Source: Mobula hypostoma | Lineage: Eukaryota | Reading direction: 5' to 3' | Length of the DNA stretch: 64,000 nt | Assembly: GCF_963921235.1 (NCBI RefSeq) | Contig: NC_086097.1 | Coordinates: forward strand, 105,650,001 to 105,714,000 | Notes under the pieces: generated by a model | What the model saw: only the letters and a program-made list of their open reading frames with translations | Databases searched by the model: none | Told to the model about the DNA's origin: nothing | Translations under genes and position numbers: made by a program | Shown: one piece after another, positions 8,381 through 64,000 of the stretch | Numbering within the stretch: position 1 is the first letter of the stretch | Layout: every line of letters begins with the position of its first letter

Positions 8381-8477
8381 AAACAACAGGAATTCTGCAG
8401 ATGCTGGAAATTCAAGCAACACACATCAAAGTTGCTGGTGAACGCAGCAGGCCAAGCAGCATCTGTAGGAAGGGGTG

Positions 8478-8515
8478 CAGTCGACGTTTCAGGCCGAGAC
8501 CCTTCGTCAGGACTA
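8478..8515 (-). ncRNA. Minimal hammerhead ribozyme motif in Penelope pLTR
   Basis: Minus strand reads tagtc-CTGACGA-agggtctcggcct-GAAAC-GTC-gactg; stem I AGTC/GACT, stem II AGG/CCT. Confidence 0.7.
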
Positions 8516-9284
8516 ACTGAAGGAAGAGTGAGTAAGGGATTTGAAAGTTGGAGGGGGAGGGGGAGATCCAAAATGATAGGAGAAGACAGGAGGGGGAGGG
8601 ATAGAGCCGAGAGCTGGACAGGTGATAGGCAAAAGGGGATACAAGAGGATCATGGGACAGGAGGTCTGGGAAGAAAGACGGGGGGGGGGACCCAGAGGAT
8701 GGGCAAGAGGTATATTCAGAGGGACAGAGGGAGAAAAAGAGTGAGAGAAAGAATGTGTGCATAAAAATAAGTAACAGATGGGGTATGAGGGGGAGGTGGG
8801 GCCTTAGCGGAAGTTAGAGAAGTCGATGTTCATGCCATCAGGTTGGAGGCTACCCAGACGGAATATAAGGTGTTGTTCCTCCAACCTGAGTGTGGCTTCA
8901 TCTTTACAGTAGAGGAGGCTGTGGATAGACATGTCAGAATGGGAATGGGATGTGGAATTTAAATGTGTGGCCACTGGGAGATCCTGCTTTCTCTGGCAGA
9001 CGGAGCGTAGATGTTCAGCAAAGCGGTCTCCCAGTCTGCGTCGGGTCTCGCCAATATATAAAAGGCCACATTGGGAGCACCGGACGCAGTATATCACCCC
9101 AGTCGACTCCCCCTTTTCCTTCTCCCTGGGCCTCCTGTCCCATGATCCTCTTATATCCCTTTTGCCTATCACCTGTCCAGCTCTTGGCTCCATCCCTCCC
9201 CCTCCTGTCTTCTCCTATCATTTTGGATCTCCCCCTCCCCCTCCCCCTCCCACTTTCAAATCTCTTACTAGCTCTTCCTTCAGT

Positions 9285-9322
9285 TAGTCCTGACGAAGGG
9301 TCTTGGCCTGAAACGTCGACTG
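9285..9322 (+). ncRNA. Minimal hammerhead ribozyme motif in inverted Penelope pLTR
   Basis: tagtc-CTGACGA-agggtcttggcct-GAAAC-GTC-gactg. Confidence 0.7.
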
Positions 9323-9949
9323 TACCTCCTCCTAGAGATGCTGCCTGGCCTGCTGCGTTCACCAGCAACTTTGATGTGTGTTGCTTGAATTTCCAGCATC
9401 TGTAGAATTCCTCGTGTTAGCATTTTCTCCTTGTTTTTATATTCTATTCCCCTTAGAATAAAGGGCAACATTGCATTTGCCGCCTTTACCACAGACTCAA
9501 CCTGCAAATTAACCTTCTGGGAGTCTTGCACGAGGACTCCTAAGTCCCTCTGCACCTCTGATGTTTAAATTTTCTCCCCATTTAGATAATAGTCTGCACT
9601 ATTGTTCCTTTTACCAAAATGCATTATCGTGCATTTCCCAACACTGTATTCCATCTGCCACTTTTTTGACCAGTCTTCCAAATTGTCTTAAGTCCTGCTA
9701 CAATTGCATTGCTTCCTCAGCACTACCTAGCCCAACACCTATCTTTGTATCATCTGCAAACTTTGCCCCAAATTTCATTATCCAAGTCATTGACTAAGAA
9801 TGCGAAAAGTTGCGGACCCAATACCGAACCCTGAGGAACACAACTAATCACTGGCAGCCAACCAGCAAATGCCCCTTCTATTCCCACTCACTGCCTCCTT
9901 CCTGTCAGCCATTCCTCTGTAAATGACAGTATCTTTCTTGTAATACCAT

Positions 9950-17968: not shown

Positions 17969-20186
17969 AGAATTGAAAATACACTTGGACTGAGATGTTA
18001 ACTGTCCTGTGCTATCACCAGTGGGATCATCAGTTGATCTGCCACCTGTCTTCAGGAGTTTCAGCCCGCTTATGATCAAGACTCCCTCGAGGTGGTGGGC
18101 CAGCAGTGCTAAAGCACCACCTCCCACTGGTGAGCTTAAAAACTTGGCATCTGCTTCTATCAGACTTGTTGGTCACTTCCATCCAACAGATAGTCTACTC
18201 TTCAGGTGTCTATGCAACTACTGAAGGGTTTGCAAAAGATGGATACACTGTCTGACTATCTGCCCCTCTGGACATACTTGGTCCACACCCATGATGGTCC
18301 TGTCTCTGCTGCCTCAGCTGGTTGACTTGATCTCTCTTCTAGTGAAGTCAAGGTCACGCAGCCACTTCTGGAAAGTGAACGCAATAAAGCCATGGCAACC
18401 TACTTCGAATGGATAGCATGAGACCTTCCACCCTCTGCCTCTGCACTCTGATCTTAATTCTGCATACTTGGTTAACTTGCACTCATGGGCTTCATCGATG
18501 TTGTCTTCCCAGGGAACTGTGAGTTCACCAATAACCACTTCTCTATTGGTGTCAGAGCATATGATTATATTTGGACGCAATGTGGTGAAAGCTATTTGCT
18601 CCAGGAAACTGCCTTTCCCATCCAGGTCAGCCTTGACACACCAATCATTGGCTGAAGAAAGTATGCTTGATTGTGGGCTTGTGCTGTACACCCTTGACTT
18701 GGAGCCTTCTTTCACAATCAATATGCGATGTTCTGTGCAGCAAGGGGCATGAGATGAGTTATGCTGCAGTACTCTCTGCTCAACCGCTTCTGTTACAACT
18801 TTGAGAATGTTGTTATGTCTCCGAGTGTACATGCTGCTGGAAAGATTGACTCTGCATGCACTCAAAATATGTTGAAGTGTTCCCTTCTCGCCACAAGCAG
18901 CACACCTGTCTGTCTTACCTTCATACCAGGTGCTGAGGTTGGCAGGTATTGGAAGCAGGTCATACGCTGCTCTGCATAGAAAAGAAATGCAGAGTGGTTC
19001 CATCTGCCACAGAACATTCCAAGATAGAAGTCGTTGTTCAACACTTTCCCACCTGGTCCAAGCCCCTTGTTTGGCCAGACCAGCTATTTTAGCTAACCTC
19101 TTCTCCTCTTCTACCTCTCGTATTTCTTGCGTTACAAGCTCATGGCGCTCCTTACCTGTAAAAGATGACCACCACTTGTGGGTTGTCCATCCAAGTCCCT
19201 GGAAGCCTAGCTGGGTAGCCCCAACCGTATCTTTGTGCTTCAGTCTAGACTCTGCCTCATCAACTGCTACATGGGCTGACCACTTCCTGCCTGATCTCAC
19301 ATCCGGCTGGGTGTTCTTGATGACAGGGTCTTTTGAATCTCGAAGCATCAAGACTGATCTTACCTTGGCTACCTTGACCTCTTCAACAAGGGATTGTACT
19401 GGGATGGTAAGCTTTGTCTGGCTACTGTAGATTGCAACATTGGTGAGGCTGCTCGGTACTCCAAACCACTTCTTCACATACTTGTTGATCTTCCATTCCA
19501 TTGCCTCAACATGGGACATTGCTACTTCATAGACAGTTAGTGGCCACGTTATCTGTGGCATCAGTCCGTACTGCAAGCCCCACAACTTCAACTTGCCAGG
19601 CAAGCCACACTTGTTGACAGACATCAGACCTCTGCTGATCTGTTCTCCTGTCTGTTGAACCCTCTTGGTGTCTCTCAGCTCCTCTGTGTACCATCGCCTG
19701 AGGCTCTTAGCTGGTTGGTCCTGAATGGATGGAATCTCCTCTCCACAAAGGGTGAAATGAAAGTCAACCAGCTTTCCTCTCCTAAGAACAAGGCTCCTTG
19801 GCTCCTTGACTTCTTGGTTTTGAACTTCATTCTTCCCCAATCCATTAGTTCCTGGAGTCTAGATGGTACACTTTCCACTGCCTCTGTGCTAGGACCCAAA
19901 AGGGTGAGATCGTCCATGAACGCTTGTATTGGTGGTAACTCCCCTCCGCCATCAAGTGCGACACCTGGTCCCACTGATTCTGCAGCCCTCGCAATGACCT
20001 CCATAGCTAACACAAAAAGGATGGGTGAAATCGCACATCCCATTGGGATTCCAACATCCAAGCTCTGCCACCTAGTTGTAAACTATTGAGTGGAAAACCT
20101 CATCCGGAAATCGTTGTAGTACCGCATAACAAAGTTCCTCACCTGAGCAGGAATCCATAGGAATTCCATCGCAAACTCAGGGCATA
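17969..20186 (-). mobile_element. HERO-like non-LTR retrotransposon (RT plus CCHC finger plus restriction-like endonuclease), 5'-truncated, one frameshift
   Basis: ORF 19675..20061 GIPMGCAISPILFVLAME...AFMDDLTLL. ORF 18314..19840 CAACGEKGTLQHILSAC, RHNNIL, RPNIII...ELTVPWE...KLTKY...EVGCHGF. Interrupts a CR1 relic. Confidence 0.85.
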
Positions 20187-33654: not shown

Positions 33655-36600
33655 TTTAAACTAGAATGGTTGTGGGGAGGGAATCAAATTAAGGAGACTA
33701 GGACAGGGGAGGAAGAAAAAGATAACAAAGTTGTTTGCTCAATTAAGGATAAACAGAGAGTTGGAGGTGGAGAGTTTCTTAAATGCATCTATTTTAATGC
33801 TAGGAGCATTGTAAGAAAGGTGGATGAGCTTAGAGCATGCATTGATACCTGGAAAAATGATGTTGTAGCTGTTAGTGAAACATGGTTGCAGGAGGGGTGT
33901 GATTGGCAACTAAATATTCCAGAATTTCGTTGCTTCAGGTGTGATAGAATAGGAGGGACAAGAGGGGGAGGTGTTGCATTGCTTGTCAGAGAAAATATAA
34001 CAGCGGTGCTCTGGCAGGATAGATTAGTGGACTCATCTAGAGAGGCTACTTGGGTGGAATTGAGGAATAAGAAAGGTGTTGTGACGCTTATAGGGGTGTA
34101 TTATAGACCACCTAATGGGGACCGAGAACTGGAGGAGCAAATTTGTAAGGAGATAGCAGATATTTGTATTAAATTTTCCACACACAGACTGGGAAGCCCA
34201 TTTTGTAAAAGGGCTGGATGTTTTGGAGTTTGTAAAATGTGTGCAGGATAGTTTTTTGAAGCAATACATAGAGTTACCAACTAGAGAAGGATCAGTGTTG
34301 GATCTCCTGTTAGGAAATGAGATAGGGCAGGTGACGAAGGTATCTGTTGGGGAGCACTTCGGGTCCAGTGATCACAATACAATTAGTTTCAGTGTAATTA
34401 TGGAGAAGGATAGGACTAGACCTAGGATTGAGATTTTTGATTGGAGAAACTTTGAGGAGATGCGAAAGGATTTAGAAGGAGTGGATTGGGAAAATTTGTT
34501 TTACGGGAAGGATGTAACAGAGAAATGGAGAACATTTAAAGGTGAAATTTTGAGGATTCAGAATCTTTACATAGAAACATAGAAAATAGGTGCAGGAGTA
34601 GTCCCTTCGAGCCTGCACCGCCATTTATTATGATCATGGCTGATCATCCAACTCAGAACCCCGCCCCAGCCTTCCCTCCATACCCTCTGACCCCTGTAGC
34701 CACAAGGGCCATATCTAACTCCCTCTTAAACATAGCCAATGAACTGGCCTCAACAGTTTCCTGTGGCAGAGAATTCCACAGATTCACCACTCTCTGTGTG
34801 AAGAAGTTTTTCCTAATCTCGGTCCTAAAAGGCTTCCCCTCTATCCTCAAACTGTGACCCCTCGTTCTGGACTTCCCCAACATCGGGAACAATCTTCCTG
34901 CATCTAGCCTGTCCAATCCCTTTAGGATCTTATACGTTTCAATCAGATCCCCCCTCAATCTTCTAAATTCCAACGAGTACATGCCCAGTTCATCCAGTCT
35001 TTCTTCATATGAAAGTCCTGCCATCCCAGGAATCAATCTGGTGAACCTTCTTTGTACTCCCTCTATGGCAAAGATGTCTTTCCTCAGATTAGGGGACCAA
35101 AACTGCACACAATACTCCAGGTATGGTCTCACCAAGGCCTTGTACAACTGCAGTAGTACCTCCCTGCTCCTGTACTCGAATCCTCTCGCTATAAGTGCCA
35201 GCATACCATTCGCCTTTTTCACCGCCTGCTGTACCTGCATGCCCACTTTCAATGACTGGTGTATAATGACACCCAGGTCTCGTTGCACCTCCCCTTTTCC
35301 TAATCGGCCACCATTCAGATAATAATCTGTTTTCCTATTTTTGCCACCAAAGTGGATAACTTCACATTTATCCACATTAAATTGCATCTGCCATGAGTTT
35401 GCCCACTCACCCAACCTATCCAAGTCACCCTGCATCCTCTTAGCATCCTCCTCATTGCTAACACTGCCACCCAGCTTCGTGTCATCCGCAAACTTGGAGA
35501 TGCTGCATTTAATTCCCTCATCCAAGTCATTAATATATATTGTAAACAACTGGGGTCCCAGCACTGAGCCTTGCGGTACCCCACTAGTCACCGCCTGCCA
35601 TTCTGAAAAGGTCCCGTTTATTCCCACACTTTGCTTCCTGTCTGCTAACCAATTCTCCACCCACACCAATACCTTACCCCCAATACCGTGTGCTTTAAGT
35701 TTGCACACTAATCTCCTGTGTGGGACCTTGTCAAAAGCCTTTTGAAAATCCAAATATACCACATCCACTGGTTCTCCCCTATCCACTCTACTAGTTACAT
35801 CCTCAAAAAATTCTATGAGATTCGTCAGACATGATTTTCCTTTCACAAATCTATGCTGACTTTGTCCGATCATTTCACCGCTTTCCAAATGTGCTGTTAT
35901 CACATCCTTGATAACTGACTCCAGCAGTTTCCCCACCACCGACGTTAGGCTAACCGGTCTATAATTCTCCGGTTTCTCTCTCCCTCCTTTTTTAAAAAGT
36001 GGGGTTACATTAGCCACCCTCCAATCCTCAGGAACTAGTCCAGAATCTAACGAGTTTTGAAAAATTATCACTAATGCATCCACTATTTCTTGGGCTACTT
36101 CCTTAAGCACTCTACCCTTTTACATTCCTATTAGGTTGAAAGGAAAGGTTAAAAGTTTGAGAGAGCCATGGTTTTCAAGAGATATTAGAAACTTGGTTCA
36201 GAAAAAGAGAGAGATCTTCAATAAATATAGTCAGCTTGGAGTTAATGAGGTACTCGAGGAATATAAAGAATGTAAAAAGAATCTTAAGAAAGGAATTAGA
36301 AAAGCTAAAAGAAGATACGAGGCTGCTTTTTCAAGTAAGGTGCAAATAAATCCAAAGGGTTTCTAAAGTTATGTTAGTGGCAAAAGGATAATGAGGGATA
36401 AAATTGGTCCCTTGGAGAATCAGAGTGGACGGCTATGTGCGGAGCCAAAGGAGATGGGGGAGATTTTGAACAATGTCTTTGGTATTCACTAAGGAGAAGG
36501 ATATTGAATTGTGTAAGGTAAAGGAAACAAGTAGGGTAGTTATGGAAAGTATGACAATTAAAGAAGAGGAAGTACTGACACTCTTAAGGAATATAGAAGT

Positions 36601-42390: not shown

Positions 42391-43490
42391 ATTTGACAGA
42401 TGTATTTGACATGAAGTGCAACAAACCTTGTGACAACTTTCAAAATAAAACAATACATGCACATTCTTAAAATGTAAAGTAAAATGGAAAATGTACATTG
42501 TGGGGATTCCTGGCCCAAAAATTAAAGATGGTTCAATTGGGTGTATGGAGAGGAAGTAGCTAGTAATCACAAGGGTTAGTGGATTTCTCGGAACTTTTCT
42601 TCACCTAACCCAGTCCATGCAAAAAAAAGACTTAAGTAACTGAGGCAGAAGGGTGTTGAGTAAAGACAGCTTGTCAGATTGGTTGGGGATAGCCTTGGCG
42701 ATGAAAATTAGAGAAGTTAATTAGATGTGGAGGCTGGTGGAAAAAAATCTGCCCTCCTCACCATCACAGATCTTCCATTTACCTTTCTACTGACTTTGAA
42801 GTAGTTAAATCCGTAATATAGCTGCTTTGAACTGCCTTGACTGAAGCATTAACTCTGTATTTCTTAGCTTGTCTCTGCAGAGCACCTGGGTATTTCTATT
42901 TTTTTTGGCACTCATATTTTTCTTTCATTCATTTCATATGAGGGATCTATTAAATGAGGTAAAATAACAATTAACAGAACTTTTTCCATTTTTAGGACAT
43001 CACACTGGAATCTTTTTATTCTCTTTCCAAACTGCCAGTAGTGTATCAGAAACACCAGGTAGAAAGTAATCATTGAGCTAATAGGCTGACTGTGTTTATT
43101 GAGGAATAGAAGAGATCAGACTCAAGTGAAATAACCAGAAAACAATGTACAGATAAGCAAACTAAAGTAGGAAACTGTTCAGCAGAAATGCATCACAATT
43201 AAAAAGCCAGAAACTTGGCAGCAGCAAAGTGGAAAAAAATGCCATGTACCGAGTTCATTGGCAATGACAAAGATGAGGAATGAAAATAAAACTTCAGGCA
43301 AAATTTGTAAAACCTGTATTAAAAAGGAGCCATCATATACATTAAGAAAGGCGGGGAGAAGGGAAAAAATGGGGAGCTATAAACCAGTTAGCCTGTCATC
43401 AGTTTGGGAAGGGAAATGGTAGAAATTATTAGGGAAGAACTAACAGGGCATGTGGAAAATAATAGGCAACCTGGGCCTGGTTGATATAGG

Positions 43491-44075
43491 TGTCAGGGTT
43501 TCTTCTTTTATGTTACTGCTAAGGTGAATAAAATGGCTTCTCTGTACTGTTAACTGCTGAGGCAGTGGTTCTCTATAGCAGCATGTTTGGGTTATAATTA
43601 GTGATAACGGGACTTGCTAATCAATTGGGATAGATGTTATTCTTTCTGTATGTGTGAAAGCTGTTAGTTTGCGTGGGCTTGGGGGAGAAGGTGCAAAGAG
43701 GATGAAGAGAGAAGACGTGTCTTGAGGAGACAGTTGCCGGACCCACTGGGCCTGGGCTAGGGGCAGGAGCCCAGGGGTCAACAACGAGCGAAGGAGGGTC
43801 AGCGAAAGGGAATCTGTAAGCTCCAACGTTTGTGCACTAGACATGTTTATGAGATTATTGGTGCCTTTTATTTGTTTTCCTTTTCTTTTATTTCTCTACT
43901 AACCCCATACTTAAATATAAAATCTCAATCGTTTAACCGCACATTGTGGACTGAATGTTATTCTGGGGTACAGGGGACAGGACATGCAGCATCCACCCAA
44001 ACAAGAGTGCTAAAGTTTGGCAGGGTAGGGGGTGCCACCCCCGAAATCATGCCAGTAGGCAAAGCGAGTGTTACA
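43491..44075 (+). repeat. 5' LTR
   Basis: tgtcagggtttcttctttt...gcaaagcgagtgttaca; direct repeat of 47207-47806. Confidence 0.95.
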
Positions 44076-44078
44076 ATG

Positions 44079-44096
44079 TGGGGGCTCGTCTGGGAA
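44079..44096 (+). other. Primer-binding site, tRNA-Pro type
   Basis: TGGGGGCTCGTCTGGGAA versus canonical tRNA-Pro PBS TGGGGGCTCGTCCGGGAT (16/18), 3 nt after the LTR. Confidence 0.85.
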
Positions 44097-44251
44097 ATGG
44101 ATTTTTGTAGGGTGCTGCGTGTTCGCCCTGTTTAAATCAGTGCCGGTGTGTCTCTGTGGGGTTGGGGTAATGTGTGTCTCTGTGGGATTGGGGTTAGTAA
44201 TGGGCTGAGTGGGGTGGATATTCATACCTTGGATGAATTGTTAATTCGATT

Positions 44252-45100
44252 TTGAATATGGTTAAAGCTGATGGCAAGTTTGAAATTGTAGCACAAAAGG
44301 TTGATAAAATGGCTGTCTCAGACCTTGCTTTAGCGCGGGCTAGCGCTGACGTCATGAAGGTGGGATTGCCAGTGTCTATTGGTGCCCCGGGTGAGGTGGG
44401 GCCATGGACTGTCCATACTGTCAGGAGGGAGGGGGAAGAGTGTTCAGAGTTTGAACGTCTAATCAGTCCTCGTCCCCCAGTGGAGAGTGAGAATTCTGGG
44501 GTAGTGTATGCTTTTGTTTCTCTAGCAAATAGATGTTCCCGCTATGGCAGGCTTGGCTTTTCCTTTGGAACAATGCCCACCCCTGAAGGGGCGGAGGCGT
44601 ACGAGACGTGGGCAGAGGCGTACGAGACATGGGCGGAGTGGATCTCTCAGTTGTTAGATAAGTGGCAGTGCTCGGATGAGGGAAAGCGGCAGGGATTGGT
44701 TGAAAGTTTGAGTAGGCGGGCTGGTGACGGTGTTAGAACTGTCAGGGTCAATTACCCTGTAGTGACAGCTGCCAGAAATCTGAAAACAGGGGGAAATGCA
44801 TTTGGTTCAACTGGAAGTAAAATGCAGCACCTGGGGGGCTTTCCATACCTGTGTCAGGAGATTGGGGGAAAGTTTTCAGGGTATTTTCTCTGGCTGGGGG
44901 GGGCAGATAAATTGCTTGTGGTGCCGGGGGATCAGTTAAGGGGATCAGCCCCTCCCTCAGTTGTTCAGCTGATCAGAGAGGTGTTGGGAAACTTAATGGA
45001 GGCCCAGTGGGGGAACGGCTTGGGGTCTCTGGGGGAACACGTTCCCAACAATGTACCAAGGAACTTCAGGAAGAAAAAGACCCTATTTCTGAGGGCTTAG
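44252..45100 (+). pseudogene. gag, PNMA/MOAP1-like capsid (degenerate)
   Basis: F(S)GTMPTPEGAEAYETW...WQCSDEGKRQGLVESL...AFGSTGS...F..LCQ..GGKFSGY resembles the PNMA-type Gypsy capsid motifs. Confidence 0.75.
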
Positions 45101-45465
45101 TGGGACCACGCTTCAGTGTGTCGTTACGGATGGAGGGAAGCTATGCTAAGGCCATCCTCGACACTGGGGCGCAGGTCAAGTTGTTGTACAGTTCGTTTTA
45201 CAACTGGTATTTAAAGCATTTTCCCTTGACACCATTTCGGGCACTGGAAATTCGGAATATCAGTGCTAGGGATTATCCAGAAGACGATTGGAATCCAGTG
45301 AAATTGGAGTTCTTGGAGGCCAAGGTGGGGGTGTCTGAGGTTTGTGAATCGTTAGTGCTGATGTGTCCAAACACTGTTGAGACTGGCAGCGTTTCGATTC
45401 TGGAGGGGACCAACACCCTGCTGGTGAGGAAGGCACATGGGGGCCTGCCAGGAGGAGGTGGGTGA
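45080..45465 (+). pseudogene. Retroviral-type aspartic protease
   Basis: EGLVGP...[11 protein letters not shown] (DTG at 45160-45168)...ILEGTN. Confidence 0.8.
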
Positions 45466-45635
45466 GAGCTGTTTAGGGGCACTGTCTGTGCACCCCTTGT
45501 TTTGAGCTGCTTGTGAGGATGTGTGTAGCAGCATTGGGCCGGTACCGAATTTAAGCGAGAGCCAATGCTGGAAGTATCTGAGGGTGAGCCCCTCTTTGTG
45601 GACGCTCTGACATACCACGGTGGGGGGGTGGGGAG

Positions 45636-46760
45636 TTGACTGCTGAAGACATCTCGGTGAGAGAGAGGTCGCGGCGACTGGCCCCTGCAGACATGGAGGA
45701 CATAGGCAGGGTGAGTGTGGGTTATAGGATCCTGAACAGGCGCACCGTACCTGACCAGTATGCGGTCACGAGGGTCAAAGACGCGCTGGTCTGTCTGAGT
45801 GGTGCGAAGTGGTTTAATGTGCGGGATCTGAGGAGTGGATGTTGCCAGATCCTAATGAGTGAGGCTGACAAGGAGAAGACGGACGTTATAAGTCCCCTGG
45901 GATCCTTCCAGTCCGAAAAGATGCCCCAGGTGATATCCGGAGCCCTTGCACCTTTCCAGTGGGGCATGAGGAAGACGGTGGGGAATGTGGAATTTTTTGG
46001 AGTTTTGGTGTATTTGGATGATCTCCTAGTATGTGGATCTGCCTCGGAAGAATATGAAGCGAGGCTGTTGCAGGAGCGGTTGAGAACTAAAGAGTTAAAG
46101 CTTTCTCTGGACACGTGCCAGGTCTGGCGAAGGTTGCAGCTCATGAGTGACTGTCTCTACGGGATCAAGTTTGAAGTGAAGACGGAGAGACAAAATTCCC
46201 AGCAGAGACTGGAGAAAGTGATCCAGAACCGGTTGGAAGACTTGCAAGTTGGGGAAGACAAAGAAAGCTGTCTGACTAAGGCCAACAGAAAACCAAGAAC
46301 CCAGAGAGGGGAGTTTGACTACACTTCCGAGGAGGTGAAGCAATTGCGGATAGATCTTGGAAGAGGGAAGCGGACGCTTGAAGGGAACCTGAAGATGACC
46401 ATCCACAGTTTAAATGAAGTGGAAAACCTGAAAGTTGACCTGGAAGAAGTTATCAGGAAGAAAAAGCTGGAGATAAGTTCAGTGGACACTAAACTGGAAG
46501 CTGAACAATCTTTAACTGCTGCTTTTCAGGTCAGGGTGGAAGAAGCTGGTGGAGTAACTGCGTCCCTGATTGAGATGGCCAAGAAGCGTGAGTCAGAACT
46601 GCTGAGACTGTGGCGAGAGTTGGAGGAGTCCAGGAAGAAGCTGTCGTCTCGATTACAGGAGGCTGAAGAGGCTGCAGAAGCAGACCAGGCCAGGTGCTCC
46701 AGCATGGAGAGAACCAACCAGCAGCTACATTCAACGGATGATGAGATGGAGGTGTGGTAA
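45636..46760 (+). pseudogene. Chimeric open frame: deleted Gypsy RT, RNase H remnant, then myosin heavy-chain coiled-coil
   Basis: [13 protein letters not shown]...DLRSG...[10 protein letters not shown] (YLDD 46011-46022); [12 protein letters not shown] (RNase H remnant); then myosin tail motifs from about 46200 to 46730. Confidence 0.85.
46200..46730 (+). pseudogene. Captured, intronless, internally deleted sarcomeric myosin heavy-chain rod fragment (MYH16-like)
   Basis: [91 protein letters not shown], and [31 protein letters not shown]. Confidence 0.85.
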
Positions 46761-47206
46761 ATGCTGCCTTTCGCTAACTTCCCCTTGTTGGGTGAAGAGA
46801 CTCCTGGCCCTTCTCCCACTGAGTCAGGTGAGGAGGGTGGGGTGCTAGCTGTGGGCAGCCTGGGTTACTGCAGGTCCCTGAAAGAGAGACGGGTGCCTGC
46901 ACACAGGACAGAACGCTCCGAGTTGCAGTGGGGGTACGAGTGAGAGATTGGGAGAGGAGTCGGCAAGCAGACCCGAGGTATCCCTAGTAGTGTCCGAGCC
47001 TGAAGGGTTTAGGTGAGGGGGTACGGAGGTCTCAGAGGATTAGGAAACTCCCAGATGGGTTGGCCTATGTAGCGCCTGGGGAACAGGGCGTAAGGTCTAC
47101 TGTTTGGGGAGCAAAGTCGCTGTTTGTACCTGGATTGGGTTTTTGTGTCTGCAGGAAGGGTTGGCAAGTTATTTAGGAGTCATGACTAAATTGGGTGGGG
47201 GGAGAG

Positions 47207-47806
47207 TGTAAGGGTTTCTTCTTTTATGTTACTGCTAAGGTGAATAAAATGGCTTCTCTGTACTGTTAACTGCTGAGGCAGTGGTTCTCTATAGCAGCAT
47301 GTTTGGGTTATAATTAGTAATAACAGGACTTGTATTCATTTGCTAACCAATTGGGATAGATGCTATTCTTTCTGTCTGTGTGAAAGCTGTTAGTTTGCAC
47401 GGGCTTGGGGGAGAAGGTGCAAAGAGGATGAAGAGAGAAGACGTGGCTTGAGGAGACAGTTGCCGGACCCAGTGGGCCTGGGCTTGGGGCGGGAGCCCAG
47501 GGGCCGACGACGAGCAAAGGAGGATCAGTGAAAGGGAATTCGTGAGCTCCAATGTTTGTGCACAGGACATGTTTATGAGATTATTGGCACCTTTTATTTG
47601 TTTTCCTTTTCTTTTATTTCTCTACTAACTAAATAAATATAAAATCTCAATCGTTTAACAGCACATTGTGGCCTGAATGTTATTTCGGGGCACTGATGTT
47701 ACACAGGGGACACAACACGCAGCATCCACCCAAACGAGTGCTAAAGTTTGGCCGGGTGGGGGGTGCCACCCCCGAGATCATGCCACTAGGCAAAGCGAGT
47801 GTTACA
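47207..47806 (+). repeat. 3' LTR
   Basis: tgtaagggtttctt...gcgagtgttaca (TGTAA/TTACA terminal inverted repeat), preceded by PPT gggtggggggagag. Confidence 0.95.
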
Positions 47807-47942
47807 TAGGGTTTTAAATGAGAGATGGTGCTTGACAAATCTGCTGTGGTTTTACACTTTGGAAAGGTCCACAATGAAATGTCCCATAAGAAGTTATTAA
47901 ACAGAATTGAAGTACATGAAATTGAGTCACATAGACATAAAT

Positions 47943-48145
47943 TGAAGATTGGATCATGGAGGCGTGAATTGAGGATCAGATCATGGAGGTGTGGATTGAG
48001 GATCGGATCATGGAGGTGTGGATTGAGGATCGGATCATGGAGGTGTGGACTGAGGATTGGATCATGGAGGCGTGGAATGAGGATCGGATCGTGGAGGCGT
48101 GGATTGAGGATCGGATCGTGGAGGCGTGGGTTGAGGATCGGATCG
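47943..48145. repeat. 27-bp minisatellite, about 7.5 copies, inside a CR1 RT relic
   Basis: Unit tgaggatcggatcatggaggygtggat. Confidence 0.9.
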
Positions 48146-50364
48146 GGTTTTGGACCGTCAAGGCGTGGGTCGAGGATTGTTTACGGGGTAGACAAGCAGA
48201 AAAAGATTGAACAAGTCTTTTTCCGATCACAAAATGGACCAGTTGGGTGGCAGATCAGTGCTGGCCTTTAACAAGTTTTATCAGTGAGGGTGAGGGGATC
48301 AGGTGTTTGCTAGTGATACAAATCTCAGTGGCAGTGCGGGCATTGGGAAGGATGCAGAAAGGCTTCAGAGACAAAAATGTGGCAGGTAGTAAACCAGAGA
48401 TTTTTTTGAATAGTGAGAATTTTTTTTCTCTTGACACAGAGAAAATTCAGAGCAAAGTATTCTCTTTACACTGACTACTTTCCTCTTCCACTCACAACCG
48501 TGTCAGGGTCTTAACATTGACAATTCTGCTAAATATTATGTTGGCAGCAGAATGTATGTCTTTACTTGCAGGCTGCTCCCAGCACATCCTTGAGTGTGTT
48601 GGTTTTGAATGTAAATGACTCTTTTCAGAATCAGATTTGTTATCAGGTCTATTGTAGCATTATATTAATATATATAATGTTAGATTAAAAATAGTGCAAA
48701 ACAGAAATAATATTTATAAAACAAAAGTGAGGTAGTGTTCATGGGTTCAATGTTCATTTAGGAATCATATGGCAGAGGAGAAGAAGCTGTCCTGAGTCAC
48801 TGAGTGTGTGCCTTCAGCCTTCTGTACCTCCTTTGACGGTAACAATGAAAAGAGGGCATGTCCAGCGTGATGGGGGTCCTTAATGATGGAGGCTGCCTTT
48901 GAGGCACTACACCTTGAAGATATCTTGGATGCTTTGAAGGGCTAGAACCCAAGATGGAGCTGACTAATCTTATAACTTGCTGTAGGTTCTTTCGGTCCTG
49001 TGAAGTTTCTGAATGTTTTAGTTGACAAACCAAATCTCCTCAATCTCTTAATGAAGTATAGCAGCTGTCTTGCCTTCTTTTTAGCTGCATCGATATGGTG
49101 GGACCAGGTTAGAGCCTCAGATGTTGACACCCAGGAATTTGAAATTGCTCTCTTCTGATCCCTCTGATCACTGAATGTTTTGATGTACATGCAATAACTC
49201 TGAATCTAAGGTTATCTCTCAGTCTCCTTCATTCCAGGGTATCCAGTCCCTCCTTATAACTCAAGCCTTCCAGAACCGGCAACGTCCTTGTGAATCTTTT
49301 CTGTACGTTCTACCTACGTTATCATATTTTATAGTAAGGTGACTGGAACTGCACAGACAGTATTAATAGATACATTCTCACCAACATTTGTACAGCTCTA
49401 AAATGAAACCCTAACTCTTGTACTTAGTGTCCCATCCAGAGTAGGCAAGTGTGCTATACACTTTCATCTTGACTACCTGTGTGACCACTTACGGAACCTA
49501 TATACTTGTATCTCAGAGTATTTCTGTTCTATAGTGCTGCCCATGACCCTGCCATTCACTGTAAATATCTTCCCAAAATATATTACTCTGCACTTGTCAG
49601 AGTTAAATTCCATTTGCCATCTTCAGCCTACTTTCTCGATCCTGTGGTAACCTTGGACAAGCTTCTTCACTGTCTACAACGCCACCAGTTTTGGTATCTG
49701 CAGACTTTCAGATCATGCCAGTGATATTTTCATCCAAATCATTAATATATGTGACAAACAACAGAACTCAGCACTGATGCAGAATCAAAGACCTCCACTC
49801 TAGGGGTGAAAAAACAACCCTCCACCACCACCCTCTGACTCCAATGAAGAAGCCAAATTTGTATCCATTTGTAACCATGAGATTCTGCAGATTGCTGAAA
49901 ATTCAGAGTAACACCTACAAAGACTAGAGGATCTCATCATTCCTGATGAAGGATCTCTGCCTGAAATGTCGACTGTTTATTCCTCTCCAAATATGCTGTG
50001 TGATCTGCTGAGTTCCTCCAGCATTTTGTATGTGTTACTCTCTATATCCAATTGGCTAGCTCACTCTGGATCCTAGGTGATTTCACATTTTGAACAAGCT
50101 TATCATATGCTGAATTACCTGTTGTAACTTTCCCCAGTACTGATGTCCGGCTCACCAGGCTGTCATTTCCTGGCTTGTCCTTGCAGCTGCTGCTTGTATA
50201 AGTGCACTATATGCAGGTACCTCACTTGAGGCTAAGGAAGATACAAAGATCTTTACCAGGACTCCAGTGATTTCTAGTGTCCCACAAGGTCCTGGGGTGC
50301 ACTTTGTCCAGCCTTATGCACCTCAAGATCACTAACCCACCTTGGGGTTGGTGTAGGCAACAGT

Positions 50365-50677
50365 GGGATTGACATAGGGACAGAATGGCCTATTCATGTG
50401 GTTGTATTGATCAGTGGGATTGACACAGGGACAGAATGGTCTATTCATGTGGTTGTATTGATCAGTGGGATTGACACAGGGACAGAATGGTCTATTCATG
50501 TGGTTATATTGATCAGTAGGATTGGCACAGGGATGGAATGGCCTATTCATGTGGTTGTATTGATCAGTGGGATTGGCACGATGGAACAGCCTATTCATGT
50601 GGTTATATTGATCAGCGGGATTGGCACAGGGACAGAATGGTCTATTCATGTGGTTATATTGATCAGTGGGATTGGAA
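50365..50677. repeat. 51-bp minisatellite, 6 copies plus a partial one
   Basis: Unit gggattgrcacagggacagaatggyctattcatgtggttrtattgatcagt; the fifth copy is 3 nt shorter. Confidence 0.9.
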
Positions 50678-50889
50678 CACAACAGAACAAAAACTGGGTT
50701 AGGGACGAGCCACTGAGCCATGCAGTGGTAATGGGAGTGAGATGTCAGAAATTTGTTTGTCTCAGTGCACACTAGGAAAATTGTGGACGTGGTGTTCAAA
50801 GAAATATGACAATATCACCTATGCTTCTTTACCATATTTAGAGATGATCATGATCAGTGGATTTCTCTTCTGGATTCCTCAACATTTTT

Positions 50890-56292: not shown

Positions 56293-59200
56293 TCACGTAC
56301 CCTGTGACGGGAATAAAGAACCAGCAGAGATGGAAAACACTTTGGAGTCCAGTATTGCTATTAACTAATAATATTTATTAGTAACTATGCAATACAGTAA
56401 TATAAGTGTAGATAAATCGAACAAGTTAGCATAAGTAAATCAGTAGGTGTGGAAATATATGTGAAAACCAAGCTTCATCAAGTCTAGGGGTAAAAAGATA
56501 CAGTCTTACGATGATGAGTAAAGTTCAGTTCAGTTAGTGGTATTGAGTTGAGTAGTGATGGGGAGAGAGAGGAGGAGAGATTTGAGTCTTCAGGTGAGCT
56601 GACGCCGTCGATCTTCTCGTTGTCCTCTGAAATCCTTTAAAAAGTCACTGACTATGACCACAACAAAGGGGACTAGTTTTCTGTGGTGGAGCTATCACCC
56701 AGGCAAGGGTGGACACATGGACAACTCCCCACCAGTCAACCCCTTTCCTTTTCACTGTAAGAGCCACTGATCAATCTGCCTGATCAATCCTCCAAAAACC
56801 CACTTTTTCTGCGGGCACAACAAAGCTCATTCAGTATCCAAAACATGTGTCTGAGGTCTATATCATCTGACCTCCTATTTTATCTTCCCGTACTGAGCAT
56901 CAGCTGTCAGTCAAATAACTTCTCCTTCCTTTGTGTAAGAAATGTACAAGCAAGCAAATATCCTTGAAGAAAATACAAACAATCCATGAGCAGTCTTCAT
57001 CTCCCTCCCTCTCTCTCTTTTAAAACAAGTTGTTGGTGTTAAATAACTCTCTCTCTCTCTCTCTTTTCCAAAGCACAGTTCATAGGGGTAATCGAGCACA
57101 GTTCATGGGGGTAATTCAGGACCCCGTTACACCCCTTTCTTCAGAAAAAAGAATTTTTGACGAAGGCGAAATTTTTAGTCTAAATGTAAATTGCAGAGTT
57201 TGAAACAATACATGTATGATCATCAGATGACAGCAAAAATATGTACAATTTCCAACTTAACATCTGGATGAGCAATCAGCGATAATATTGTCAGTACCTT
57301 TCACATGTTTGATTGTCAGATCAAATTCTTGCAATATCAGACTCCAATTTAACAACCTTCTATTCTTACCCTTTATCTTAGTTAGAAACACCAACGGATT
57401 ATAATCCATGTAAACCACAAGTGGTCTCTGGGTGACAGAAAGATTTCGAGGTTTTTTTTTTGAACAGAGGTCTCAAAATGTTGCAAGGCCAGAATAAGTG
57501 CTAGTAATTCCTTTTCAACAGTTGAATAATTTCTTTGAGAAATAAGCTACTGAGTGTTCAATGTCATCCACACCCTTCTGTAACAGTACTGCCCCAGCAG
57601 TTTCGTCACTAGTGTCTGTTGCTATCGAAAATAGTTTTGAAAAATCAGGTGCTTTGAGCATAGGATGATAACACAGGATGGTTTTCAGACGTTCAAATGC
57701 CTCCTGGCAAAGGTCATTCCATAAAAATCTTTCACTCTTCCCTAGGAGTTTTGTTAGGGGGAGAGCGATGTCAGCAAAGTTCTTACAAAACTTACAATAA
57801 TACCTAACCACTCCTAAAAACCTACTCAAAGCTTTCTTGCCGGTCGGAACAGGAACCTCATCAATAGCTTGAACCTTGGCCTGTACAGGAGCCAGTTGGC
57901 CTTGGCCCACCACATAGCCCAGATATGTAACTGTGGCATCACCAAATTCACTTTTAGTGAGGTTCATGGCAAGATTGGCCTTGGGAAATCTGTCACACAG
58001 TTTTCCTACAGCTGCAATATGCTCTTCCCACGTGTCATTCCAGACCATTAAATCATCGATATAAACCCCTGTGTTTTCTAAACCTCTAATCACAGAATTG
58101 ATCATTCTTTGAAATGTCCCTGGTGCATTTTTCATCCCGAAGGGTAAACCATTGTGCTCATACAGTCTAGACAGTGTCACAAATGCTGATATCTCTTTAG
58201 CCCTCTCTGTCAAAGGAACACCCCATCATCCTTTTAACAAGTCAATCTTAATAAGGTATTTAGCCTTCCCCACTCTATCAATACAATCACTCATTCTCTT
58301 TCCTTGTTCTTTCTTGTTTCTAATTTCTTCAACCATTTTACTTCTCTCAAAGTTCACTCTGTGAAGATACTGTTTCATGGGCTGGGCTGAATTTATAATG
58401 ATGTAATGCACTGCACCTGTGCACCGCTTCAAAATGCCAATTAGTCCTTTCACTTGTTTTTGAGGTTTAGGGTCCAACTGATGGACCTTATCAGTAATCT
58501 TTTTCAAAACAATGGAATCTGACGTCTTGGTGAGATTAGATTCAGTAGGTAAACATGTTTTTCCATCCCATTATCAGATTCCACGACTCCATTTTGTTCC
58601 ATAACAATTCTCCCAGCTGAATTCCAGCAAACAAGTGTTTTATTTTGATTCGACCATTCTGTAAACCCTCCTTTGCAAGGCCACAAATCTTAGTAAATCC
58701 CTTCCAGAATTTTAAAACATAATTAAGCACACTGACACATGTTTCCAAATCAGACCATAGTTCTCTGAATAGGGTCAAAGGTCCTTTTGGCCTGTAACTG
58801 GACACAGGTTCCAACAAACTACCCTCCAATGCCTTCTGAATCGAATCTCCAACAATAAATAAGAGTAGGGGAACCCTCTCGTTCCAATTTTTCCCATTTC
58901 TCACACAATATGCTTTAATCATGGTCTTAAAAGTTGAGTTGAAGCGTTCCAAGGCTCCCTTGGACTCCGTGTGATATACAGATGATACCATGTGCCTAGC
59001 TTCCAGTTCTCTAACTATCCCCTGGAATGTTCTCGAAGTAAAGTTACTGCCCTAGTCAAATTGCATTTCTTTGGGCAGACCTACCAGTATGAAAAACTTA
59101 CTGAATGACTTCACCACAGTCTTGGCCTCGATATTTTCAAAAGACACTGCTTCAGGGATCCTAGACACAGCACACACAATTGTTAACTCATACTGATAAC

Positions 59201-62036
59201 CAGCTGCAGTCTTTGGCAATGGGCCTACACAATTCGCTATGACCCTAGAAAAAGATTAATCAAAAGCAGGTATTGGTTTAAGTAGTGTGACTTGAATAAC
59301 CTGATTTAAATTTCCCCTCAACTTGACATGTATGGTAAGTCCTGTTACAATACACAACATCCTTTCTTAAACTAGGCCAGTAAAGTTCCTTCATAATCCT
59401 TTTCACTGTCTTTCTTACTCCATAATGTCCACCTAAAGGCATACTGTAAGCCATGTTTAAAATTTCAGCCCTGTAAACTTTCGGAACCACCACGTGACTT
59501 GCAGGCACAGTGGCTGGTCTCCACTTCCTCATCAATACTCCACCTTTAAGGTAATATCCCACTGGCTCTCTCCGAACCTCCTCGTCTGTGAGAGCTGTCT
59601 CCTTTAAAGCCACCATTTCAGAATCTTGCTTCTGTTCCTCTATATTCCTTCCTGCATAAGGACAAACCTTTCTCATACACCTTACTCTCATCAGCTTTAC
59701 TACCCTCTAAGTCCTGTGGAAATCTGGAAGGTAGAAAAGTCTGTGACACATCATCATAATTTAAACCTCTGGTTTTGCTGTCATAGGCCGCAACAGGCTG
59801 CCTAAACATGCTTTGAGTATCGGCACATGTAAAATAAACATCAGTCTTTCTGTGTGGTTCCTTAGCAACAGCCTTGCTCATCAGCTGAATTGCTGAAGTA
59901 CTCTTATCTTGGAGAGCTGTCAACCTCCCAATATTGTTTACCAAACTTGGCACCATCACCAGGCTTATGAGAACCATGTATACATTATGGAAGAGACCAA
60001 ACAATCCATTCATCTGATTACAACTTTCACTTCAACTTGCTTCCATAAAATCACACTGAATAACAGCATGACCTTGCAGGTGTGTACTTTCAAATGTCCA
60101 AACAAAATTCCACAGAGTAGCACATCCTTCCTCAGCAGGCCTTTGTCCTGCAAGCAGGGTCAAAGGTCACGCAACCAATCACCTTTTTCAGCACTTTATC
60201 CAAAAGTCCAGGAACAGCCCTTTTCCCATTATTTTCAGCAACACTGACCTCACCAATTTCCATCTTATCACTAACTTTTAAAACACTGTCTAATACAAGT
60301 GACTGAGAATCCTCACATTCCACTGGTACCAAGGTTAACCCCTTATTCACTGAACCAAGATCATCTGACACAAAAAAACTGCATTCCTTTTCAACTAAGT
60401 CAGACACCTCAGACTTTAACTGAGCTTCACAAGGTTCAGACCCTGTGAACTCACAGGTACTTCAACAACCTGAACACAGGCAATCGGGACAGCTGCCTCT
60501 TCTGGGCTGTCATCACTTGTCCCAGTTTCACATTCAAGGTCACCCCGAACCTCCCAGCTATTCTCTGGCAAACTCTCATCTGGAGTAAACTGAAGCTCGT
60601 GGGTTAAAACAATTTCGTCTGCTTTCTTAGCAGACCCCCGCAGGGTAGCGGCATCCTCTGAATTTAGGTATGCCCTTACATCATCAGGAACACAGCTTTT
60701 AAATTCATCAAACAAAACAAGCCCTTCTGAGCTGTAAAAATCATCAGGGTCTGACAGTAAACCTCTCAGCTGCCACACCTTCCTTTTAAACTGTCTCTGT
60801 CTTTCTGCCTCTTCTCTCTGTTTGTCTGCCTCTTTAGCCTCGTGGACCCTCCTCTTTACTGCTTCAACAGCCTCAAGCTGTTTTAATTTCAATTGCAATT
60901 TCAACTGAATCTCAGCCTCAGTAGGTTTCCTTCCAACAAACAACTCTAACGCCTCCTCATCAAACGTTCCCTTATCTATATAACGTTGGGCTATTACCGT
61001 CGGCATCTGAGCTCTCCTCATTATAGTGGTCACCTTTAGTCTTAACTTTGAGCAATTCCCAACAGCACAACCCTGGTAGCATCATCCAACGCTCCAGGGT
61101 TGGTTCCAACATAAACTTCTCAACACTAACGTCCATTTCTGCTGTATTTCCACACAACCAAATCAAAAAGTATTTTCCCCTATTAATTCGAACAAGTCTC
61201 CCACAATTTGTTCATATCACAGACGCAGGCCCCAATTTTGTCACATACCCCGTGACGGGAACAAAGAACCAGCAGAGATGGAAAACACTTTGGAGTCCAG
61301 TATTGCTATTAACTAATAATATTTCTTAGTAACTAGGCAATACAGTAATATAAATGTAGATAAATCAAACAGGTTAGCAATGATTATATATAAGTAAGTA
61401 AATCAGTAAGTTGGAAATATATGTGAAAACCAAGCTTCATCAAGTCTAGAGGTAAAAGGATACAGTATTACGATGATGAGTAAAGTTCAGTTTAGTTCGT
61501 GGTATTGATTTGAGTAGTGATGGAGAGAGAGAAGGAGAGATTTGAGTCTTCAGGTGAGCTGACGCCGTCGATCTTCTTGTTGTCCTCTGAAATCCTTTAA
61601 AAAGTCACTGACTGTGACCACAACAAAGGGGACTGGTTTTCTGTGGTGTCCACCCAGGCAAGGGTGGACACATGGACAACTCCCCACCAGTCAACCCCTT
61701 TCCTTTTCACTGCAACAGCCACTGATCGATCCCCCAAAAACCCACTTTTTCTGCAGGCTCAATCAGTGTCCAAGACATGTGTCTGAGGTCTATATCATCT
61801 GACCTCCTATTTTATCTTCCCGTGCTGAGCATCAACTGTCACTCAAATAACTTCTCCTTCCTTTGTCTGTGTAAGAAATGTACAAGCAGGCAAATATCCT
61901 TGAAGAAAGTATAGACAACCTGTGAGCAGTCTTCATCTCCCTCCCTCTCTGTCTTTTAAAAACAAGTTGTTGGTGTTAAATAACTCTCTCTCTTTTCCAA
62001 AGCACAGTTCATAGGGGTAATTCAGGACCCGTCACA
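56293..62036 (-). mobile_element. Gmr1-like Gypsy LTR retrotransposon (gag-PR-IN-RT-RH order), degenerate
   Basis: LTRs about 56293-57131 and 61239-62036; PPT (minus strand gaagaaagggg) at 57132-57142; tRNA-Pro-like PBS about 61216-61235. gag 60416..61033 (FDEFKSCVP...ADEIVLTH); IN 58542-59691 (GHYGVRKT..YWP..TCQ; YHTESKGALERFNST); RT/RH 57515-58507 (IDLLKG, PFGMKNAPGTFQR, YIDD, GAVLLQ). Confidence 0.92.
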
Positions 62037-62893
62037 CCCCATATTGGTATGTTAAGTGTTAAGGCCAGTGGGAGATGGGGGAAAGGAACAGTTCTTGAAA
62101 TGGATAGTGTGCTCTAGTCACTGCAGATGGAAGCTGAGCCAAATTGAGAGTTTTGGAAAAAGCGTAGCCTCAGTGAGGGCCATTTTTGGGAACAGTGATC
62201 ATAATATTGTTGACAGGTTCCTTAAGGTTGTCATAGCTAGGAGACGTTGGGGTGAGGATAGTGGGGGTAAACTCCCACTGAATGTTAAATGCTCCCAATG
62301 GCGTGCATCTCAGATAACCCCTGATAGCCTGTTCCTGGCTTTCACATTTGGCTTCACTACTAAGCCCAGCAGAACTGCTTCTGCTGACAGGAGAAGGGGC
62401 AAAGATGGGTTACTGACATCTTAAAACCAGTTGCTTTGGACACGTGGTGCTCATCGGCCATAGTTGGTAGCCCATCCAGGGGATGCAACATTCACATTCT
62501 ACTTCAACCAATGGAAAGCCATGTGATTGTTAGTTGTTACAAAGGCAGCGGGCACAGTTGAGATGCTTGTAAAATGGGGATACTGTTAACTTAACTGAGG
62601 AGGAGGAAGTAACAATACTGGTTAAGATCTTTCAACTCCAAATGGGATGGATCTGAGATAACTGGAGGAATGAAGGTGGTTTTTGCAGGGATTCTGGAGG
62701 ATGGTAGTTATTACAGCATGTTTAAAATTAGGTGTGAAGGATGAAGCTGACTGATGTTGGCCAGTCCATCCAGAATCAGTGGTGGAGAAAACCTGAGGTC
62801 ATAATCTAGCAAGAGCGGATAATAAATGAAAGGGAGCACAGACTTGTTCGAAGCAAATTGCATATAATCAAGCAGCATCTGTAGGAAGAGGTG

Positions 62894-62931
62894 CAGTCGA
62901 CGTTTCAAGCCGAGACCCTTCGTCAGGACTA
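62894..62931 (-). ncRNA. Minimal hammerhead ribozyme motif
   Basis: Minus strand tagtc-CTGACGA-agggtctcggctt-GAAAC-GTC-gactg. Confidence 0.65.
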
Positions 62932-63961
62932 ACTGAAGGAAGAGTGAGTAAGGGATTTGAAAGTTGGAGGGGGAGGGGGAGATCCAAAATGATAGGAGAA
63001 GACAGGAGGGGGAGGGATAGAGCCAAGAGCTGGACAGGTGATAGGCAAAAGGGGATACGAGAGGATCATGGGACAGGAGGTCCGGGAAGAAAGACAAGGG
63101 GGGGGGGACCCAGAGGATGGGCAAGAGGTATATCCCACCACTAAGCACATCTTTCCCTCCCCGCCTCTCTCTGCATTCCACAGGGATTGCTCCCTACACA
63201 ACTCCCTTGTCCATTCGTCCCCCCCATCCCTCCCCACTGATCTCCCTCCTGGCACTTATCCGTGTAAGCGGAACAAGTGCTACACATGCCCTTACACTTC
63301 CTCCCTTACCATCATTCAGGGCCCCAAACAGTCCTTCCAGGTGAGGCAACACTTCACCTGTGAGTCGACTGGGGTGATATACTGCGTCCGGTGCTCCCGA
63401 TGTGGCCTTTTATATATTGGTGAGACCCGACACAGACTGGGAGACCGCTTTGCTGAACATCTACGATCTGTCTGCCAGAGAAAGCAGGATCTCCCAGTGG
63501 CCACACATTTTAATTCCACATCCCATTCCCATTCTGACATGTCTATCCACGGCCTCCTCTACTGTAAAGATGAAGCCACACTCAGGTTGGAGGAACAACA
63601 CCTTATATTCCGTCTGGGTAGCCTCCAACCTGATGGCATGAACATCGACTTCTCTAACTTCCGCTAAGGCCCCATCTCCCCCTCGTACCCCATCTGTTAC
63701 TCATTTTTATGCACACATTCTTTCTCTCACTCTCCTTTTTCTCCCTCTGTCCCTCTGCATATACCTCTTGCCCATCCTCTGGGTCCCCCCCCTCCTTGTC
63801 TTTCTTCCCGGACCTCCTGTCCCATGATCCTCTCGTATCCCCTTTTGCCTATCACCTGTCCAGCTCTTGGCTCTATCCCTCTCCCTCCTGTCTTCTCCTA
63901 TCATTTTGGATCTCCCCCTCCCCCTCCAACTTTCAAATCCCTTACTCACTCTTCCTTCAGT

Positions 63962-63999
63962 TAGTCCTGACGAAGGGTCTCGGCCTGAAACGTCGACTG
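63962..63999 (+). ncRNA. Minimal hammerhead ribozyme motif
   Basis: tagtc-CTGACGA-agggtctcggcct-GAAAC-GTC-gactg. Confidence 0.7.
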
Positions 64000-64000
64000 C

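Follow-up and report, generated by a model that had tools for sequence, protein, structure and literature searches.

The question raised by this locus is how a piece of myosin rod, put together in one reading frame from segments that are not neighbours in the native protein, came to lie in the genome of the ray Mobula hypostoma, and why its frame is open. The window, by which we mean the whole stretch of 64,000 nucleotides that was analysed (assembly GCF_963921235.1, contig NC_086097.1, positions 105,650,001 to 105,714,000, forward strand), had been the subject of an original prediction made from its letters, in which the fragment was described as an intronless capture stitched together at heptad microhomologies by reverse transcriptase (RT) template switching.

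Results

The myosin fragment lies within a non-autonomous Gypsy element

The myosin-rod fragment (46176-46727) was found to sit inside a non-autonomous Gypsy LTR element of 4.3 kb, the parts of which are given in Table 1. As in Ty3/Gypsy elements, there are paired TG...CA LTRs and a short target-site duplication, and the two LTRs align with 539 matches, 40 mismatches and 4 gaps. The primer-binding-site-like stretch is one that we take to resemble a tRNA-Pro primer site. Between the LTRs, gag, protease and RT are present in the Ty3/Gypsy order, with PNMA scoring above its cut-off and RVP and RVT_1 below theirs; RVT_1 was the sole family detected in P0001. Since no RNase H, integrase or whole RT was found in P0001, P0005 or P0232, these do not represent an autonomous Ty3/Gypsy element. 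The myosin fragment takes the position expected for RNase H and integrase and is fused in frame to the truncated RT, so that a single ORF of 390 codons (45588-46760) runs from the RT remnant into the myosin piece. Relative to the 729-aa Hypanus ORF P0005, tblastn placed a frame change in gag near 44930-44945 and further frame changes in the protease and linker region at about 45430-45570 and near 45627, and the window copy has a stop codon in the family tail at a place where its relatives read through. Because of these frame changes and this stop, the window copy is a decayed genomic copy. No second copy of the myosin-bearing element was found within the 64-kb window.

Table 1. Features of the myosin-bearing element, numbered by position in the window.
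Feature	Coordinates	Strand	Basis or remark
Left target-site duplication, TAGG	43487..43490	+	Identical 4 letters at 47807-47810
5' LTR, TG...CA, 585 nt	43491..44075	+	Aligned to 3' LTR
Primer-binding-site-like stretch	44079..44095	+	Directly 3' of 5' LTR
PNMA-type gag	44237..45100	+	PF14893 E 6e-12, above cut-off; tblastn with P0005
Protease and linker region	44911..45627	+	RVP E 0.077, below cut-off; tblastn frames
N-terminal RT remnant, YLDD kept	45588..46175	+	RVT_1 E 5.7e-6, 26.6 bits, below 29.6 cut-off
Short myosin remnant, MYH16 ~953-965	46176..46208	+	Followed by 24-residue skip at KL/KL repeat
Myosin block A, MYH16 990-1096	46209..46529	+	Crosses inferred intron sites 1024/1025 and 1073/1074
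VRVEE, five residues from ARVEE site	46530..46544	+	Between 7- and 35-residue skips; P0247, X1 contig
Myosin block B, MYH16 to 1172	46545..46631	+	Ends in ELEE repeat of 208-residue skip
Myosin block C, MYH16 1381-1412	46632..46727	+	Jump alignment
Family tail	46728..46853	+	9-residue skip, then stop 46758-46760; P0005 likeness ends 46853
Polypurine tract	47193..47206	+	Adjoins 3' LTR upstream
3' LTR, TG...CA, 600 nt	47207..47806	+	Aligned to 5' LTR
Right target-site duplication, TAGG	47807..47810	+	Matches left TAGG

The fragment is composed of separate segments of the rod

Against solved structures, the myosin piece matched the MYH4/MYH7 rods in three separate places (E 2.8e-19, MYH4). A jump alignment to ray MYH16, the proteins of which were located via shark clusters, resolved three blocks corresponding to residues 990-1096, 1140-1172 and 1381-1412, between which a net 42 and 208 residues are skipped; 90 of the 172 residues (52%) are identical to Hypanus MYH16. 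The blocks follow one another directly, all in the one frame of the ORF, so that the original prediction was right both about the direct, in-frame adjacency of the blocks and about their non-contiguity in the rod. Compared with MYH16 alone, VRVEE need not form a separate block and a single skip of 42 residues would suffice; this reading was dropped on the evidence of two relatives. P0247, a protein of the electric ray Narcine, reads EQSLTAALQ, RKIKEYQ, ARVEE and LEEELDAE in succession, retaining sequence that is skipped in the window copy, and the X1 contig, from another ray, reads KEYQARVEEL directly after its AAF stretch, where 15 of 21 letters are equal to those of the FQVRVEE codons of the window (counted by eye). 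Since these two relatives are independent, the 42 residues are divided into skips of 7 and 35, in agreement with the finer split at VRVEE that had been proposed. Other relatives reveal two further skips in the window copy, of 24 and 9 residues. The part lost in the 24-residue skip is retained by the longer relatives P0004, P0128, P0134 and P0135, and X11 contigs show loose ends at 46220/46224, near this skip. Over the columns that it shares with P0247, block A is identical at 55 of 78.

Inferred intron sites are crossed without introns

Gene calls on genomic contigs leave MYH16 sequence between QIHE and LEDNW (P0284 and P0294, which show both sides) and also after EE(V/I)(V/L)KK (P0278, P0282, P0286, P0287, P0296, P0303 and P0314). 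We read both break points as probable MYH16 intron sites, and the QIHE/LEDNW site agrees with the MYH7 acceptor reported at c.3100 in the accessible text of PMC8105165. Since the window crosses both of these inferred sites without introns or any extra letters, an RNA source of the myosin piece is well supported, and with it the predicted RNA intermediate. A third boundary is provided by MYH7 exon 27, which is stated to begin at Ala1113 (PMC12734256, accessible text), and the X1 contig runs across this exon 26/27 boundary. A single exon holds the whole 35-residue skip as well as the left breakpoint of the 208-residue one, while the right end of the latter lies about two codons before an exon start; the breakpoints are thus not explained by exon boundaries, which the original prediction had named as the observation that would speak for exon skipping. 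With part of a host mRNA standing in place of internal ORFs between its two LTRs, and with parental introns lost at the two inferred sites, the element agrees with the LTR-mediated retrocopies of Tan et al. (2016). None of the runs containing the stretch is recorded as RNA (the type of X11 and X19 being a guess), and they are evidence neither for nor against transcription.

The donor was probably of MYH16 type

When summed over fixed blocks for three family members, the scores of batoid MYH16 took ranks 1-5 among 205 full-length myosins. A teleost donor, hinted at by match ranking, found no support on these fixed blocks, and the idea that rays are without MYH16 was dropped, ray MYH16 proteins having been found. 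At the 94 diagnostic columns, 33 agreed with MYH16, 24 with the shark/ray myosin-7-like gene and 37 with neither. Trees, for which we chose 31 and 19 host proteins from the 205, gave the family and P0247 a long branch, situated between the MYH16 clade and the remaining myosins. The best tree puts the family outside elasmobranch MYH16 and a forced position inside was not rejected (AU 0.14), while a sister position to MYH7B was rejected (AU 0.012, from 2000 replicates, a number flagged by the program as few). There is also an apparent MYH16-type paralogue class, comprising P0330 (Bufo) and the unnamed P0281, P0299, P0315, P0317, P0320, P0325, P0332 and P0356. Its unnamed gene calls break off after LEK or LDK, as MYH16 does, all members carry the QAKC motif, and block C fits this class better. 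As judged from these sequence features, the donor may have been a MYH16-type paralogue rather than canonical ray MYH16. P0247 (Narcine bancroftii XP_069785580) is a short-branched sister to the ray family (SH-aLRT 99.3) and spans myosin from about 796 to 1122 with skips of its own, one of which ends at an exon start; it may be either a host paralogue or a copy of the element.

A high-copy family carries a ladder of deletions

All 14 near-length matches, and the best 3 of the 120 longer matches listed, were ray chimeras, distributed over many chromosomes and carried by Mobula birostris, M. hypostoma, Hypanus sabinus and Hemitrygon akajei. In two DNA runs, 3299 and 3112 contigs matched and 30 of 30 bins were covered; with chimeras at many loci and in thousands of contigs, further rounds of retroposition are evident. 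Five more Hypanus loci besides P0005 hold single ORFs of 632-729 aa that are 93-97% identical to it. Not one of the 25 relatives that were mapped retains the part skipped at the 208-residue junction: 13 have this very skip, in 9 a larger deletion spans it, and the sequences of 3 stop short of it. The FQV junction is common to 8 of 17 relatives, P0004, P0128 and P0134 keep up to about 75 more upstream residues, and other skips in the family measure 42, 54, 101, 9, 4, 13 and 19 residues. A 126-nt deletion is present in all four runs X1, X5, X11 and X19, which represent two organisms. Since relatives retain parts that are skipped here and since deletions are shared by subfamilies, most of the stitching followed capture, stepwise, with different subfamilies carrying differing deletions; the 208-residue skip alone could date from the capture itself. 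A reading of the stitching as a single event in the window copy is not supported, the deletions being spread stepwise over the subfamilies of at least four ray species. The longer, less deleted captures that the original prediction suggested looking for do exist (for example P0004, P0128, P0134, P0247 and the X1 contig). A search of viral contigs gave 17 pattern matches, none of which was confirmed, and of 243 among metagenome contigs the only one confirmed, L001, was dropped as a chance match on an unrelated bacterial frame. The RefSeq ray proteins P0005, P0240 and P0243 bear the names of TMEM192, GSTT2 and SDHAF3 isoforms, which suggests either exonisation or fused gene models.

Most junctions share short repeated words

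Five of the seven within-family junctions at which the window has the longer form lie on repeats with a TGGA core, the longest exact match being 4-7 nt; each of these repeats reached P<=0.04 by one of two measures (longest run or matches in 11 nt), at junction places chosen by hand from the data. The other two, of 330 and 12 nt, have no repeat. Of 16 deletion lengths only 4 are divisible by 7 (P=0.19), and the 208-residue junction joins leucines of two different heptad phases. Selection for heptad register was rejected on these two grounds, and heptad microhomology, as first proposed, is not supported as the rule. What stood of that proposal is that junctions fall on repeated words, whereas its LQ/LQ repeat is absent from ray MYH16 (TLH..KEHQ) and reads LQ/YQ in P0247. 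The common factor at the junctions is repeated Leu-Glu codon words with their TGGA core and not the register of the coiled coil. We infer RT template switching at these words, which leaves the same footprint as DNA-level microhomology deletion, the parent breakpoints being known only at the protein level.

The reading frame has mostly been kept

Within the piece, 119 of 269 exact repeat pairs of at least 5 nt are in frame (44%), and microhomology alone therefore explains the kept frame poorly. Each of the five skips mapped in the window copy preserves the frame (P=0.017 given a base rate of 44%). The path leading from the split with Narcine measures 0.385 substitutions per site, a distance at which neutral evolution should have produced 4-5 stops; the 172 codons contain none (P0 0.007-0.018). 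Contig joints, which do not depend on annotation, are in frame in 5 of the 7 classifiable cases within the ORF (P=0.14 at 44%, among the 15 of 43 joints listed), and the synonymous excess is weak (12/28, P 0.08; 7/13, P 0.05, among the 40 of 623 variants listed). Among the 12 of 75 small indels listed, 10 fall downstream of the stop, and the remaining 2, within the ORF, compensate for one another. The annotated proteins are a sample biased to open frames. Conservation in the family and in the host is uncorrelated (rho 0.10, P 0.23, 152 columns), the family keeps 46 of 71 host-invariant residues, and Gly or Pro has been gained in several members, so that, on these comparisons, myosin-like constraint looks absent. 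Taken together, and on modest statistics, it is likely that the open frame, and not myosin function, was selected in the replicating lineages. The original prediction had left the choice between a by-product of codon-aligned microhomology and selection for translation; the latter is favoured here, while the former would leave only about 44% of deletions in frame.

Discussion

We propose an explanation in four steps, to which we assign a probability of about three in four. An ancestral batoid Gypsy element would have gained part of a spliced MYH16-type mRNA, probably by template switching, and the captured part, reading in frame with gag-pol, would have taken the place of RNase H, integrase and the last portion of RT. 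The resulting hybrid, dependent on a helper, continued to be copied and grew into the high-copy family that stingrays and devil rays carry. As round followed round, stretches of the repetitive rod that lay between short repeated words were lost. These words are for the most part Leu-Glu codons built on a TGGA core, and RT slipping between repeats is the most likely agent of the observed pattern. Each deletion that arose in a replicating copy founded a subfamily, 208 residues going early and then 7+35, 24, 42, 54, 101 and others. Finally, replicating lineages would have been selected for readability through the cargo rather than for myosin function; on general grounds, candidate reasons are RNA stability or packaging linked to translation.

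Two other explanations concern the deletions and the frame. The kept frame could be a by-product of codon-aligned repeats, chance and ascertainment, with no selection on translation, since annotated proteins are a biased sample, the in-frame proportion of contig joints does not differ significantly from 44%, and the window copy itself has a disrupted upstream part and a stop after block C. We consider this unlikely while giving it appreciable weight, as fewer than half of the repeat pairs are in frame, every skip of the window lineage is, the expected stops are missing, and the listed indels lie behind the stop or compensate each other. The deletions, for their part, could be the work of DNA-level microhomology-mediated repair in genomic copies, some of which later became masters, with RT slippage playing no part. 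Such repair leaves the same short-repeat footprint, out-of-frame deletions (net 43 and 97 nt) do occur among the contigs, and switching between poorly matched templates is given as at least 1000-fold rarer than homologous switching (PMC3187697, accessible text). However, since many deletions are common to entire subfamilies and to two organisms (the 126-nt deletion in all four runs), they must have passed through replication, and intramolecular switches are reported to yield deletions, also deletions with insertions (PMC3187697). Repair without RT slippage seems to us distinctly unlikely.

The remaining explanations concern the origin of the piece. Had the mosaic arisen in the act of capture, through repeated switching along one mRNA or between MYH16 and MYH7-type mRNAs, this would fit the mixed diagnostic votes (33, 24 and 37 of 94) and the absence of residues 1173-1375 from all 25 relatives, and captures with more than two switches have been reported by Tan et al. 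(PMC5131818). We judge it improbable as a general account, because relatives retain the parts skipped at the 24-, 7- and 35-residue junctions, which must be later, because a MYH16-type paralogue class that has block-C features accounts for the mixed votes with a single donor, and because the MYH7B sister position was rejected, if with only 2000 replicates; it may apply to the 208-residue junction alone. Exon skipping or cryptic splicing of a myosin transcript could be argued from the right end of the 7-residue skip, which is the exon 26/27 boundary (PMC12734256), and from that of the 208-residue skip near an exon start. Against this, left ends lie inside exons, the 35-residue skip lies entirely within one, relatives retain the end of exon 26, and the residue preceding KKL in relatives is K, R, E or P, which fits the last codon of the upstream exon and not the left-hand Ala; we regard splicing as very improbable. 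Least credible of all is a domesticated PNMA-like host gene with a working myosin coiled coil. The long open frame and the RefSeq labels (MYH16-like or myosin-like) given to such copies would suit it, yet the LTR pair and target-site duplication are intact, gag-pol is broken, a stop follows block C, copy number is high and there is no myosin-like constraint.

The mechanism of capture that we favour, LTR-mediated retroposition, is already known, and the notable part is the deletion ladder with its kept frame. In the animal cases described by Tan et al. (2016, PMC5131818), partial mRNA likewise replaces internal ORFs with both LTRs kept, there is short similarity at the switch points with more than two switches possible, and the chimeras are recopied as non-autonomous elements. 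Those cases are young retrocopies, 15 in fly and 3-10 in other species, whereas the ray chimera is high-copy, occurs in several ray genera and has undergone a later in-frame deletion ladder in its cargo; the term "in frame" is absent from their main text. Maize Bs1, as cited in the same paper, is also an LTR element with transduced host coding pieces, a hybrid ORF and further cycles of retroposition; it joins pieces of three unlinked genes, whereas the ray pieces appear to come from one myosin rod. Retroviral RT likewise deletes one repeat and the intervening sequence by an intramolecular switch, in cases that mostly involve repeats of 60-700 nt in vectors (PMC3187697, accessible text), while here the exact repeats are of 4-7 nt and are seen as evolutionary footprints only. 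As regards MYH16 and its paralogue class (PMC6402096, accessible text), batoid MYH16 provides the best-scoring full-length parents over three family members, and yet identity to the ray piece is only 52% and some residues are those of other myosin types. A literature search, with a coverage that leaves out most subscription journals, listed no paper on this ray family and none on frame selection in non-autonomous LTR elements, and the accessible text of one mobulid genome preprint has no matches for myosin.

The family offers a natural series in which the ways a retroelement deletes repetitive cargo can be counted across many lineages. It also bears on whether selection for an open frame persists in a parasite that has no working enzymes, and allows selection acting on translation to be told apart from that acting on the protein sequence. 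Tentatively, and with more doubt than confidence, we picture a helper-dependent vertebrate LTR family in which a frame of gag, protease, RT and myosin would have been kept open by selection since before the split of stingrays and devil rays, possibly since that of electric rays, even as its amino acid sequence drifted and its cargo became shorter. What was selected would be translation extending through the cargo, or else a helical tail, tethered to Gag, that brings the RNA into helper particles, and the cargo would preserve an unrecognised ray MYH16-type paralogue. In practical terms, copies annotated as MYH16-like, myosin-7B-like or isoforms of TMEM192, SDHAF3 or GSTT2 can inflate counts of ray myosin genes.

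Other features of the window

A second LTR element lies on the minus strand at about 56300-61700, with direct repeats of 92-97% identity some 4950 nt apart, and has no blastn match to the myosin-bearing element. On its coding strand RT/RNase H (57515-58222) is preceded by an integrase zinc domain (59278-59703), an order that we take to be that of Gmr1-type Gypsy elements. LINE-type RT remnants were found on the minus strand at 34653-36119 and 18314-19858 (RVT_1 E 4e-33, zf-RVT weak), and positions 397-696 are 97% identical to 34603-34902. The stretches 8382-9418 and 62856-64000 are related and have long inverted arms that are 93-99% complementary. Tandem arrays occupy 47941-48144 (27 nt x 7.6), 135 nt behind the 3' LTR, and 50361-50679 (51 nt x 6.3).
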